A stretch of 62,406 nucleotides of DNA, the filler included, from Basidiobolus ranarum (Eukaryota), in the NCBI GenBank assembly GCA_040143965.1. It is 30 parts of 30 records of this genome, joined end to end, with 100 filler letters (N's around TTAATTAATTAA, not from the genome) between each part and the next. Parts side by side here need not be neighbours in the genome. Positions count along the whole stretch, not along the records: positions 52,140 to 54,114 come from JASJQH010003988.1; 29 more parts are not named here. One strand, written 5' to 3'. Numbering within the stretch: position 1 is the stretch's first letter; the number at the start of each line of letters is the position of its first letter. A program made the translations under genes and the position numbers. Positions 4,281 through 55,143 of the stretch are shown piece after piece. The notes under the pieces were generated by a model. That model was not told the DNA's origin. It was given only the letters and a program-made list of their open reading frames with translations, and searched no databases.

Positions 4281-4353
4281 GAACTGGTAGCTCAGTGGTT
4301 AGAGCACCTTGCTAGAGTGAAGGAGGTCCCAGGTTCAAATCCTGGCCAGACCA
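4281..4353 (+). tRNA. tRNA-like element / pseudo-tRNA (AGA in the anticodon position, short variable loop)
   Basis: D arm GCTC-AGTGGTTA-GAGC; anticodon arm CCTTG-CTAGAGT-GAAGG (one mismatch); variable AGGTC; T arm CCAGG-TTCAAAT-CCTGG; acceptor GAACTGG/CCAGACC with two mismatches. Confidence 0.75.
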
Positions 4354-52019: not shown

Positions 52020-52139
52020 AACTGGCGTTGATCAGACTGNNNNNNNNNNNNNNNNNNNNNNNNNNNNNNNNNNNNNNNNNNNNTTAATTAATTAANNNNN
52101 NNNNNNNNNNNNNNNNNNNNNNNNNNNNNNNNNNNNNNN

Positions 52140-52232
52140 GAACATGAGGACGATGATGATGATTATGACGACGACGAAGTTACCAATACTGGCAATACAA
52201 ATGCTCAAGCACCAGAATGCAAGCAACAGTAA
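52140..52232 (+). CDS. NAP1: Nucleosome assembly protein 1, C-terminal end
   Basis: Acidic tract followed by QAPECKQQ-stop, the CaaX ending typical of NAP1. Confidence 0.8.
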   Translation, partial: EHEDDDDDYDDDEVTNTGNTNAQAPECKQQ

Positions 52233-52632
52233 AGCTTCAACGATTGTTCCCCGTAACCGTGAGGTTTTGAAAGCACAATTTTGACCACTCCGTTACTTGA
52301 ACTCGATCTATATGGATTCTCCGCTCCTTATCTAATTTTCTTATATTCCCTTCATTTCAAACAATTAATAGTCTCAATAGCAGTTCATTAGAAAGAGGTG
52401 TAAATTATAAACATCCATAGCTACACTAAGGATGAATTTTGCTTTTAAGAAAATTATTTATTTACATTGTTGCGAAAAATAAATCCCTTTTGAAGTTACT
52501 TGATGTGTGATAATGTTCTTCTTGTATGTAGATTCTTTATTATTTGTTTGACGAAAAGAGAAGAATCGGGTCAATTGATTGAATTTTTAGAAAGTGAATG
52601 TAAGGTTGTATGATATGAGAGGTGAACATGAT

Positions 52633-53193
52633 CTAAGAACGAACTGGCCAAGGCTTCCAATTGAATTTAAGACCACCTCGAATTTCTTGAACTTTTCCGG
52701 TTTCTGGACGACCTACAAGGTTTTCATTAAAGAAAGAAAAGATTAACAAAGAACTCTACCATATAGCTCGGTAAAAAAAACCACCAACCTTGCCAATATT
52801 TAATACCCCAAGCTTTACCGTGTTGTAAATCCTAAAAGGTGAAGAGAGAATAATCGAGGATGAGTTGAGAATGAAGTGAAGAAACCTCTCCCTCAGTGGT
52901 ATCGAATATATATACTGTACCGTTCTCAGGTTAACTTTGGTGACTAAATAGTAGCTCTCGTTGAATCCTTTATCCAACCACTTGGTGATCGTCTGTTACA
53001 AAAGGGAACGAGGATTAATTATTTCGTGATTTCGGAGAATTGCACCAGTCTACTAAAAACCTACCACTTTACTTCCAACACCATTATCTTTCAACAAGTT
53101 CAAATGTTGAAACAAAGTCTTGTTGCTATTGGAGGCACGAACAATAGGTGGGTACCCGTGAGTTCTAAAGATCTTGTTCACTACAGACGACAT
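52633..53193 (-). CDS. MRPS34: Mitochondrial ribosomal protein mS34-like, 107 aa; exons 53193-53065, 52992-52921, 52831-52789, 52712-52633
   Basis: Three GT-AG introns (72, 89, 76 bp) give ...KTLFQHLNLLKDNGVGSKVTITKW...SYYLVTKV...DLQHGKAWGIKYWQG...EIRGGLKFNW. Confidence 0.85.
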
Positions 53194-53701
53194 ACTAATA
53201 TGCTTTGTTGGGTCGAAGACTTTCTAGCTTAAAGAGCAAAAGCTGATTGCGAAATACTTGTTCGACCACAAAATCCTTCACCTTACAAAAATCAAGAAAA
53301 AATACAAATTCTTTCATCAGATTTCTTGATGACCCCAAATTCTATACTTAAAAATCACCCAGAACTTAACAAAATTGGAATTTCGAAGTCTGACTTCATC
53401 CATACAAAGAGGCTAGCGTTTAAATCTTGATTGTTTCCCATTTTTAAAACATAAGAGAGTTTAGGTCAATATATACTTGCTTATCAATTTGAAAATTATA
53501 GTAGAGGAGTATTACAAGTGATAAAGTCACAATTGTTGAGTTTCTATGCCAAATTTCTATAGATATTATTACAGTACTATAATACTAAGAAGCTGTAGAT
53601 AGTGTTTCTGCTCACAATACATACTGTTGTAACAAAACCAACAATACCGAGATCAATCTAATGTGATTATGAATGTATCTGATGATCAATTTACAAGAAA
53701 A

Positions 53702-53771
53702 GCGCGTTAACATAACTGTTAGTACATTCCTGATTTATCCAGGGGTGGGGGGTTCGAATCCTTCGACGCGA
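53702..53771 (+). ncRNA. tRNA-like Pol III leader with A and B boxes
   Basis: Acceptor CGCGTT/GACGCG; near A box TAACATAACTG; arm TTCCTG-ATTTATC-CAGGGG; T arm GGGGG-TTCGAAT-CCTTC containing a perfect B box GGTTCGAATCC. Confidence 0.75.
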
Positions 53772-53784
53772 TTAAATTTCGAGT

Positions 53785-53872
53785 GGTGCACCGATGACGA
53801 AAAACAATGGATGTGTCTTGACAGAACTTAATGTTGATTAAAACCATTGTCTGCCTTCCTACTGAGGTCACC
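53785..53872 (+). ncRNA. SNR52: Box C/D snoRNA, snR52/U83(SNORD83)-like, predicted guide for 18S rRNA Am420 (yeast numbering)
   Basis: Box C ATGACGA 53794-53800; D' TTGA 53818-53821; C' ATGTTGA 53831-53837; D CTGA 53862-53865; terminal stem GGTGCACC/GGTCACC; guide CTGCCTTCCT complementary to 18S AGGAAGGCAG. Confidence 0.87.
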
Positions 53873-53877
53873 TTTTT
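53873..53877 (+). terminator. RNA polymerase III terminator (T5)
   Basis: First run of 4 or more T after the B box, directly after the snoRNA 3' stem. Confidence 0.75.
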
Positions 53878-55143
53878 AGTCCCTCTTGAAATTTGTTCAA
53901 CAAAAACCAACACATGTTTACGCGTAAGAGCGTAGCAGTATTTTGTTTATTTAAAGAACCGTGGTATAATATTTAACCAATAATGGAATATTTCTATAAT
54001 AATTATTTAACTCTACTTTATATCATATGGTACCACAGAGAACCATTCATTTTTCAGTAAACTCTGGTAGCCACATTTCTGCATCATTTTTACTGTGGCA
54101 TCGTTCCAGGTTTCNNNNNNNNNNNNNNNNNNNNNNNNNNNNNNNNNNNNNNNNNNNNTTAATTAATTAANNNNNNNNNNNNNNNNNNNNNNNNNNNNNN
54201 NNNNNNNNNNNNNNGTATACCCTAGTGAACTTTGGTTGTACACTTCAATCAATAGCAAGTCTGGTGAGTTATATAGGCTGATCACGTCTAGTTACTACTA
54301 TTGCCTTTCTGGCTATCTGAGATGCATGGCACAGATGGTTACGCTCATTGGCTTAGATACCGATCATTAGCTATCTTCTATATGCAACACCTCATGATTG
54401 CATTCTTGTACGTAACTGGCTCGTTAGTCGAAATTTAAAGATGTCAATATTTAGTTTAAGCTATCAGGTTCCCCTTGTTAAATCCAGTATATCTAGTATA
54501 GTAATTCCTTGAGATTTTTCATTTTTAATAACGCTAAGGTAATAGTTTGAGAGGGAGGGTGGCTAACATTCAAGCTATTAATTATTGCCAGTTAGTATCG
54601 GTGTCACGGATGGTTACATAATTATCTTCTTTGTGTTACACACATTCTTTTCGATCTGTTTCTATTCTTAAAGAGGTGCCTCCACAATTTATGGAATCGA
54701 ATCATAGCAAATCAAATCCTGTAAATATAAATCAAATTAATTTATACTTTATAGGTGGTACCTTGATTACGCGGAACGAATAGTTGGGTAGGAGCCGTCT
54801 GTGCGCTCTAATAATCATTGATACTGTATCTTGAATGGATTGAAAAATAATTCAACTAAATGAGGCCTGTATTTACTAACTCATTACAAGTTTTGTATTA
54901 TAGAGGCACTTAAGCGATATAACCTATATACAACATTACCTTTAAGGCGAAACTAAACTCGAAGTTTAGTTGTTAGGCTCAGCTACTTTTAGTTCACACT
55001 TGTCGTCACTGTATGAAGAATACAGAGGATCTAATACTAAGAGTGAATTATATATATAGCGACAGTCAGGTTCAATTGCAATTTATGATCTTATTTACTT
55101 AGTAGTGTATTTTGCACAGACTGTACAGTGAATGAAATAATGC

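Follow-up and report, generated by a model that had tools for sequence, protein, structure and literature searches.

The analysed window is a 62,406-nucleotide (nt) stretch from Basidiobolus ranarum (GCA_040143965.1) that comprises 30 contig pieces of 1972-1993 base pairs (bp), arranged in descending length and separated by linkers of the form N-TTAATTAATTAA-N (e.g., 52041-52139 and 54115-54214). Features on different pieces have no physical linkage. The subject of this report is a compact unit on the plus strand of piece 52140-54114 (JASJQH010003988.1), so that its true context is about 2 kb. The unit consists of a leader shaped like a transfer RNA (tRNA), a box C/D small nucleolar RNA (snoRNA) of the U83/snR52 type, and a short oligo-T run. 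It is likely, although considerable reserve is warranted, that this is an RNA polymerase III (Pol III) unit in which a tRNA-derived leader would supply the promoter and probably the cleavage sites for RNase P and RNase Z. The features of the locus, ending with the neighbouring gene, are as follows.

53701-53773, plus strand: tRNA-shaped leader, 73 nt (cloverleaf minimum-energy fold; ARAGORN at a 94% threshold)
53708-53719, plus strand: weak A-box-like stretch TAACATAACTGT, tRNA positions 8-19 (read from the sequence; no statistical support alone)
53725-53747, plus strand: anticodon-like stem-loop with an 8-bp stem, loop AUUUAUC at 53733-53739, U at position 37, and nominal anticodon UUA
53748-53764, plus strand: canonical T arm with a 5-bp stem and loop UUCGAAU; contains the B box
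53751-53761, plus strand: B box GGTTCGAATCC, an exact match to GGTTCGANTCC, spanning the loop and 3' half of the T arm
53774-53784, plus strand: spacer, 11 nt between the leader and the snoRNA terminal stem, no T run
53785-53872, plus strand: box C/D snoRNA, U83/snR52 type (Rfam snoU83 match at 53789-53869; alignment with 11 metagenome units)
53785-53792 and 53866-53872, plus strand: terminal stem GGUG(C)ACC / GGUCACC, 7 bp with one bulge
53794-53800, plus strand: C box AUGACGA, one change from RUGAUGA (sequence reading and Rfam)
53808-53815, plus strand: conserved element UGGAUGUG, complementary to CACAUCCA (alignment of 12 units)
53818-53837, plus strand: degenerate D' box, UUGA at 53818-53821 or CAGA at 53822-53825, and degenerate C' box AUGUUGA at 53831-53837 (sequence reading, register uncertain)
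53851-53860, plus strand: D guide CUGCCUUCCU, in the register of the Rfam snoU83 consensus
53862-53865, plus strand: D box CUGA (sequence reading and Rfam)
53873-53877, plus strand: T5, candidate Pol III terminator, the only run of four or more T in 53690-53877
52633-53193, minus strand: MRP-S34 gene, context outside the unit (four exons, 107 amino acids; Pfam MRP-S34, 48.1 bits)

Besides a discriminator position, the leader has a 7-bp acceptor-like stem, a compact D-like hairpin, an anticodon-like stem-loop, and a T arm. Folding of 53702-53772 gives a cloverleaf as the minimum-energy structure (z-score -2.41), and 3 of 200 shuffled sequences fold as well. An initial description of this DNA, hereafter the sequence-only reading, had reported a cloverleaf-like leader with a perfect B box and a non-canonical D arm and anticodon-like loop (ATTTATC), and each of these elements is recovered here. 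The leader is not called by ARAGORN at default settings, but with the threshold relaxed to 94% it is called as 'tRNA-Stop(tta)' over the full 73 nt. The Rfam tRNA model (RF00005, gathering score 29 bits) finds no match in the leader at E<=10 in searches of 381 and 91 nt. In null sequences with an unaltered T arm and the remaining 54-55 nt shuffled, ARAGORN at 94% made 8 calls among 2000, and a cloverleaf-shaped minimum-energy fold arose in 9 of 3000; false calls already number 160 of 2000 at an 85% threshold.

The B box is the sole exact copy in the window. Matches with at most one mismatch number 3 in the window versus 0.29 expected, and none of 100 shuffles reaches 3. Elsewhere the leader departs from a regular tRNA: its anticodon-like stem abuts the T stem, and the variable loop is absent. 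The cloverleaf and the canonical T arm of a tRNA are thus accompanied by a loss of the conserved tertiary and decoding positions and of any covariance-model match. Since the leader fails the tRNA covariance model, a domesticated or decayed tRNA describes it better than a tRNA gene, which agrees with the view of the leader originally taken. When the leader was aligned globally to the 15 ARAGORN tRNAs from the 118 metagenome loci described below and the window, the best score was 8 (shuffled mean -4.6, maximum 6). The signal comes mostly from the T arm, and the ancestral isotype therefore cannot be named. Only two tRNA-like elements are present in the 62-kb window.

The identity of the downstream RNA is indicated by the Rfam snoU83 model (RF01179), which matches 53789-53869 end to end with 35.8 bits and an E-value of 1.8e-4 in a 381-nt search, or 9e-4 when the whole 2-kb piece is searched. 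The related snoZ13_snr52 model (RF00335) yields 17.1 bits, and its gathering score is 47. The C and D boxes are bracketed by the terminal stem, as is structurally required of a box C/D snoRNA. The claim of a complete C/D snoRNA holds for the C box, the D box, the terminal stem, and the guide, and has to be softened for the D' and C' boxes, which are present but degenerate and uncertain in register. For comparison, metagenome contigs were scanned for a C box followed by 40-70 nt, the guide, and a D box, which produced at least 118 loci (numbered with the prefix L) with at least 132 units. These units are unfiltered and include many near-identical copies, and some in GC-rich contigs look like chance bacterial matches. 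This form of the C box recurs in the sample, where ATGACGA is present in further units, including those of L012, L015, and L032.

The guide and its register are identical to those of the Rfam snoU83 consensus, with the pairing compared to the target of the family rather than to the 18S ribosomal RNA (rRNA) of the host itself. They are also common to all of the metagenome units by design of the search pattern. U53857, the fifth nucleotide upstream of box D, selects the fourth base (A) of the 18S sequence AGGAAGGCAG. From this register, the predicted target of 2'-O-methylation is the 18S adenosine that corresponds to A420 of yeast. The targets given for yeast snR52 are 18S-A420 and 25S-U2921 (PMC9418376). 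In Neurospora, 18S-Am417 is assigned to the D guide of CD42, for which snR52 and human U83 are given as homologues (PMC2780460). A 22-nt 18S motif scanned against viral contigs gave 0 matches.

A second segment of the snoRNA may also contact the rRNA. In an alignment of 12 units (the window and 11 metagenome units), a block of the form UGGAU(N)UGUG follows the C box; most members keep it, and it is weaker in L075 and L010. The block lies outside the search pattern, yet it is shared by very different organisms, including the budding-yeast snR52-like units. The portion UGGAUGUG is exactly complementary to CACAUCCA, which we take to lie directly 5' of the guide target AGGAAGGCAG in 18S rRNA. On the strength of this complementarity and its conservation, UGGAUGUG is probably an accessory base-pairing element with 18S rRNA. 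Extra base-pairing has been described for many C/D snoRNAs in a study that leaves snR52 unnamed in its main text (PMC3116282). With the D' box read as UUGA, UGGAUGUG would be aimed instead at a C that precedes the U14 site by three bases.

The leader and the snoRNA lie on the same strand, 11 nt apart, with no internal T4, and T5 follows directly after the terminal stem. The unit therefore carries an exact B box and an oligo-T run at its end with none inside, as expected for Pol III. The spacer without T4 and the terminal TTTTT had both been noticed in the sequence-only reading, and both stand, with the snoRNA placed 11-13 nt behind the leader. These signals suggest an independent snoRNA gene that would be expressed as a Pol III transcript of approximately 175-185 nt. 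The first 73 nt would be a decayed tRNA. At the DNA level, its exact B box and weak A-box region may recruit TFIIIC and TFIIIB; TFIIIC binding is mostly B-box dependent. Transcription would start a few nt upstream of 53701, read through the 11-nt spacer and the snoRNA, and stop at the T5 at 53873-53877. At the RNA level, the retained acceptor stem and T arm would direct an RNase P cut on the 5' side and an RNase Z cut after 53773. Both enzymes accept acceptor/T-arm minihelices. The leftover 5' extension would then be trimmed by 5'-3' exonucleases up to the small nucleolar ribonucleoprotein, and the 3' U tail would be trimmed too. The data show how the unit is built, with statistical support for its layout, to which family the snoRNA belongs, and that the unit is intergenic and divergent from its neighbour; from these we infer the polymerase, the start site, each processing step, and the methylation itself.

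The genomic setting of the unit is defined by one neighbouring gene and by the composition of the window. The MRP-S34 gene was recognised through a full-library protein search with a minus-strand open reading frame (ORF). The 107-amino-acid library protein P0294 carries the exon of this ORF at 100% identity, and its sequence equals the four-exon splice running from 53193 down to 52633. The Pfam match was obtained on the spliced product; single ORF fragments of the 2-kb piece gave no Pfam match. The leader-snoRNA unit lies approximately 500 bp upstream of this gene in divergent orientation and is therefore outside its introns. An intronic origin, one of the outcomes that the sequence-only reading had regarded as damaging, is thus not what the MRP-S34 gene provides, and the unit is intergenic with respect to it. 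Regarding composition, the majority of the pieces are retroelement fragments (gag, protease, integrase, and reverse transcriptase domains). The ratio of observed to expected CpG is bimodal across the 30 pieces, ranging from 0.01 to 0.14 in 20 retroelement-type pieces and from 0.55 to 0.83 in 10 genic ones. This pattern is compatible with methylation-driven decay, or decay resembling repeat-induced point mutation, in which C-to-T changes are restricted to repeats. The ratio in the leader-snoRNA unit is 1.11 (0.25 in the whole window), which places the unit outside the CpG-depleted repeats and upholds the earlier remark that its CpGs are intact, unlike those of the repeats. No second copy of the unit is found in the 62-kb window by blastn.

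Several observations weigh against a Pol III unit with a processed, tRNA-derived leader. The A box consensus is TRGCNNAGTGG, located approximately 30-60 bp upstream of the B box. The stretch TAACATAACTGT starts 43 nt from the start of the B box, which is the right distance, but matches this consensus only in part: T8, R9, C11, A14, and G18 are kept, whereas G10 and G19 are missing and, with the latter, the GG of the D loop. The near-consensus A box of the sequence-only reading was therefore overstated. The D arm forms a compact hairpin of 5 bp whose UAAC loop lacks G18/G19 as a GG pair, pair 2-71 of the acceptor stem is a G.A mismatch, and one extra G stands between the T stem and the acceptor 3' strand. 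Because of this mismatch, the extra base, and the missing G18/G19, recognition by RNase P and RNase Z is not assured. The stability of the leader also depends on its boundaries: with flanks included, the z-score is only -1.32 and 17 of 200 shuffles fold as well, and, taken as a whole, the 176-nt unit does not exceed its shuffles in stability (z-score -0.08). A plus-strand host transcript starting between 53200 and 53700, within 53200-54114, is possible. Furthermore, the Neurospora orthologue is intronic, and Pol III expression of this snoRNA is therefore not general in fungi (PMC2780460).

A further point concerns the snoRNA itself. The snoU83 score is below the gathering score of 50, and at the gathering threshold the Rfam list for the window lacks the snoRNA and reports only a tRNA at 4281-4353. 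The covariance check invited by the sequence-only reading is consequently positive in that the family model matches and negative in that its threshold is not reached. In a calibration scan of six metagenome loci with the same guide, snoU83 scored 65.2 bits in L010, 44.4 in L018, and 38.8 in L028, and three budding-yeast snR52-like units had no Rfam match at E<=0.1. The L018 and L028 units adjoin other snoRNAs, and L010 is a plant-type snoRNA cluster. The 35.8 bits of the Basidiobolus unit are thus comparable with the scores of other evident U83 units. Since L018, L028, and the yeast units all fall below the gathering score, genuine members from beyond the seed taxa normally score below it. The L010 cluster shows that the Rfam snoU83 model is tuned best to plant sequences. 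The cluster itself (L010:5006-6648, minus strand) is polycistronic and contains three U14 copies, snoR99, snR60/Z15, U83, a SNORD27-like snoRNA, and Z43.

Some of these observations would be accommodated if the snoRNA were made by RNA polymerase II (Pol II) from a promoter region shared with the divergent MRP-S34 gene, and the tRNA-like element were a dead tRNA gene within a trimmed 5' extension. Most fungal snoRNAs are Pol II products or intronic, as is CD42 of N. crassa, and the weak A box, the failure of the leader against the tRNA model, and the location of the unit within a divergent intergenic region of approximately 500 bp are all in keeping with such an origin. However, a relic in decay would hardly keep all 11 nt of the B box exact and the T arm complete as its remaining sequence drifted. 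The 11-nt same-strand adjacency would also need explaining where 62 kb hold only two tRNA-like elements, and T5 after the snoRNA with no internal T4 fits Pol III, although this is modest evidence in an AT-rich genome. A Pol II origin is accordingly regarded as unlikely, if still deserving of serious attention. Less probable again is an inactive locus, either a pseudogene or a retroposed tRNA-snoRNA chimera without expression. Its attraction lies in the U-to-C change of the C box, the sub-threshold Rfam score, and the repeat-rich assembly with its many retroelements. Yet the same ATGACGA box is found in L012, L015, and L032, the unit has a CpG ratio of 1.11 versus 0.01-0.14 in repeat pieces, no second copy is found in the window, and the terminal stem, the guide, the D box, and the accessory element are all intact.

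Two further explanations concern the nature of the leader, and both are very improbable. The relaxed ARAGORN label and the canonical T arm could denote a working tRNA with the nominal anticodon UUA, a reader of stop codons, which would make the locus a true dicistronic tRNA-snoRNA gene of the plant kind. Such a molecule should not have U at position 37, lack a variable loop and the GG in the D loop, carry an acceptor G.A mismatch and an extra base before the acceptor 3' strand, and go unmatched by the Rfam tRNA model at E<=10 in the 91-nt search. A functional suppressor tRNA is rejected on the tRNA model and on the decoding positions, and with it the functional tRNA that characterises the plant type. 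The leader region could also belong to a second, overlapping C/D snoRNA, with a C box UGAUGA near 53680 and a D box CUGA at 53730, in a two-snoRNA cluster. Weak Rfam matches on the plus strand at 53660-53739 point in this direction (TtnuCD28, 20.3 bits, E 1.5; snoU83D, 18.4 bits, E 0.6), but E-values near 1 carry little information, the boxes have no bracketing terminal stem, and the exact B box and the cloverleaf would be left unexplained. This candidate at 53660-53739 is likewise rejected, and the C/D-like matches are probably due to chance.

For a Pol III unit with a tRNA-derived leader, the closest parallels come from the metagenome sample. The best match to GGTTCGANTCC within 150 nt upstream was determined wherever at least 100 nt of upstream sequence were available, in 132 units of which 131 come from the metagenomes and one is that of the window. 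It has 0 mismatches in three units (L069, L097, and the window) and, among the matches listed, 1 mismatch in one unit (L112), 2 in seven, and more in the rest. In a control region from -450 to -300, the corresponding counts for 0, 1, and 2 mismatches are 0, 3, and 2 of 114. Because one-mismatch matches occur in 3 of 114 controls, a one-mismatch B box alone is unremarkable. In L069, L097, and L112, the B box (0-1 mismatch) lies 25-28 nt before the C box, and these are the only such metagenome units among the matches listed (3/132). L069 and L097 have a T5 at a distance of 3-10 nt downstream of the D box, whereas the first T run of L112 is a T4 located 29 nt downstream.

The neighbouring genes identify the hosts of these three loci. 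L069 adjoins VAN1, with best named matches in Clavispora and Metschnikowia; L112 is syntenic with L069, and its VAN1 is 67% identical; and the neighbour of L097 is an aspartic protease closest to those of Scheffersomyces and Yamadazyma. All three are budding yeasts, and the loci therefore represent the known Pol III SNR52 arrangement. Their leaders have good A boxes and no cloverleaf fold. The comparison with yeast SNR52 made in the sequence-only reading thus holds, in that the other B-box leaders among the matches listed are those of three budding-yeast loci and are not cloverleaves. The units span L069:522-741, L097:1440-1661 (minus strand), and L112:2452-2676. Between their A and B boxes, the leaders of L097 and L112 contain a long hairpin of significant stability (z-score about -3.4). 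ARAGORN calls the L069 and L097 leaders as tRNAs only at an 80% threshold, where false calls are common, and these calls were not counted. Degenerate A- and B-like boxes are seen in L031 and L034, which have the same D' guide as the yeast units. Among the matches listed, the remaining units, including several that are intron-like or in snoRNA clusters, have no B-box leader of this type. The searches turned up no orthologue of the unit in a related fungus. A combined pattern of B box, C box, guide, and D box gave 0 matches in genome contigs and 0 in viral contigs.

The Basidiobolus unit resembles S. cerevisiae SNR52 and its budding-yeast orthologues in snoRNA family, 18S guide, and UGGAUGUG element. 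The position of the B box, a few tens of nt upstream of the C box, is also shared, as is the T5 of L069 and L097. The two differ in the D' guide GUGAACAAUCU, of the 25S-U2921 type, which is present in the yeast units and absent from the Basidiobolus snoRNA, and in the host, which is here a non-Dikarya fungus by protein similarity. A third difference lies in the leader: those of the yeasts keep a good A box but not the cloverleaf, whereas the Basidiobolus leader keeps the shape with a weak A box. Budding-yeast snR52 is a known Pol III transcript (PMC5095917). According to Acker et al., the upstream sequences of S. cerevisiae snR52, RPR1, and Zod1 could not be arranged into a tRNA-like structure (PMC2566860).

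Other known systems share individual parts of the arrangement. In plant tRNA-snoRNA dicistrons, a tRNA-shaped element also lies directly upstream of a C/D snoRNA, in a Pol III-type unit with a candidate RNase Z site. RNase Z processing of these plant dicistrons is reportedly stated in the title of Kruszka et al. 2003. The upstream gene in plants is a functional multicopy tRNA and the snoRNA belongs to another family, whereas the element described here fails the tRNA model; unlike the plant tRNA, the Basidiobolus leader looks dedicated to its snoRNA. Arabidopsis tRNA-Gly-snoR43 is one example of the plant genes (PMC2566860). The same source describes tRNA-5S rRNA and tRNA-RUF70 dicistrons in Yarrowia lipolytica, in which the upstream tRNA likewise provides a promoter and a tRNase Z site. 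In these, however, a genuine tRNA heads the unit, followed by 5S rRNA or RUF70 and not by a snoRNA. The intronic orthologues CD42 of N. crassa and human U83 have the same guide and target (PMC2780460) but are released from introns of Pol II host genes, in contrast to the intergenic Basidiobolus unit with its Pol III signals. According to the Neurospora study, dicistronic tRNA-snoRNA genes have been characterised exclusively in plants (PMC2780460). In the literature searched, no tRNA-shaped leader is reported on an snR52/U83 gene outside budding yeast, and for non-Dikarya fungi neither such a leader nor a snoRNA made by Pol III is described. Yeast SNR52 and the plant dicistrons already supply the components and the logic; the novelty lies in their combination and in the lineage.

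The contrast between a leader that keeps its shape with a weak A box and leaders that keep the A box and have lost the shape suggests an RNA-level role for the leader in Basidiobolus and a DNA-level role in budding yeast, a comparison of one locus with three. Pol III snoRNAs are rare, and the textbook fungal case is budding-yeast SNR52. A tRNA-shaped leader with a perfect B box in a distant fungal lineage offers a concrete, testable model for the origin of the SNR52 leader and a plausible intermediate. More speculatively, and with a rather low likelihood, snR52/U83 may already have been a Pol III gene with a captured tRNA in front of it in an early ancestor of the fungi, with the Basidiobolus locus as an intermediate that retains the tRNA shape without the decoding features and the structureless yeast leader as a further-decayed end state. 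On this view, the copies that lie in introns in Pezizomycotina and animals would have been relocated, and the yeast SNR52 promoter, the standard means of expressing guide RNAs, would be a fossil tRNA. Alternatively, a tRNA may have been captured independently, as happened in plants. The locus makes it possible to test whether such leaders are processed by RNase P and RNase Z in fungi and whether transcription of this snoRNA by Pol III is an ancient trait or one that evolved more than once, as in plants. As a compact cassette that joins a promoter to processing signals, it could also serve small-RNA expression in early-diverging fungi.

Two observations on other pieces of the window complete the description. 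The tRNA at 4281-4353 (plus strand) is the sole element in the window that passes as a tRNA, with an Rfam score of 51.1 bits and the ARAGORN label tRNA-Ser(AGA). Its 73 nt include no long variable arm, two of its acceptor pairs are mismatched, and the piece that carries it is strongly depleted of CpG, with a ratio of 0.06; the element may be repeat-borne or decayed. Another piece encodes a PHO4-type phosphate transporter, and in a search that took in only proteins of at least 609 amino acids, its best named relatives are from Neoconidiobolus (55%), Lunasporangiospora (47%), and Piromyces (46%), all of which are non-Dikarya.

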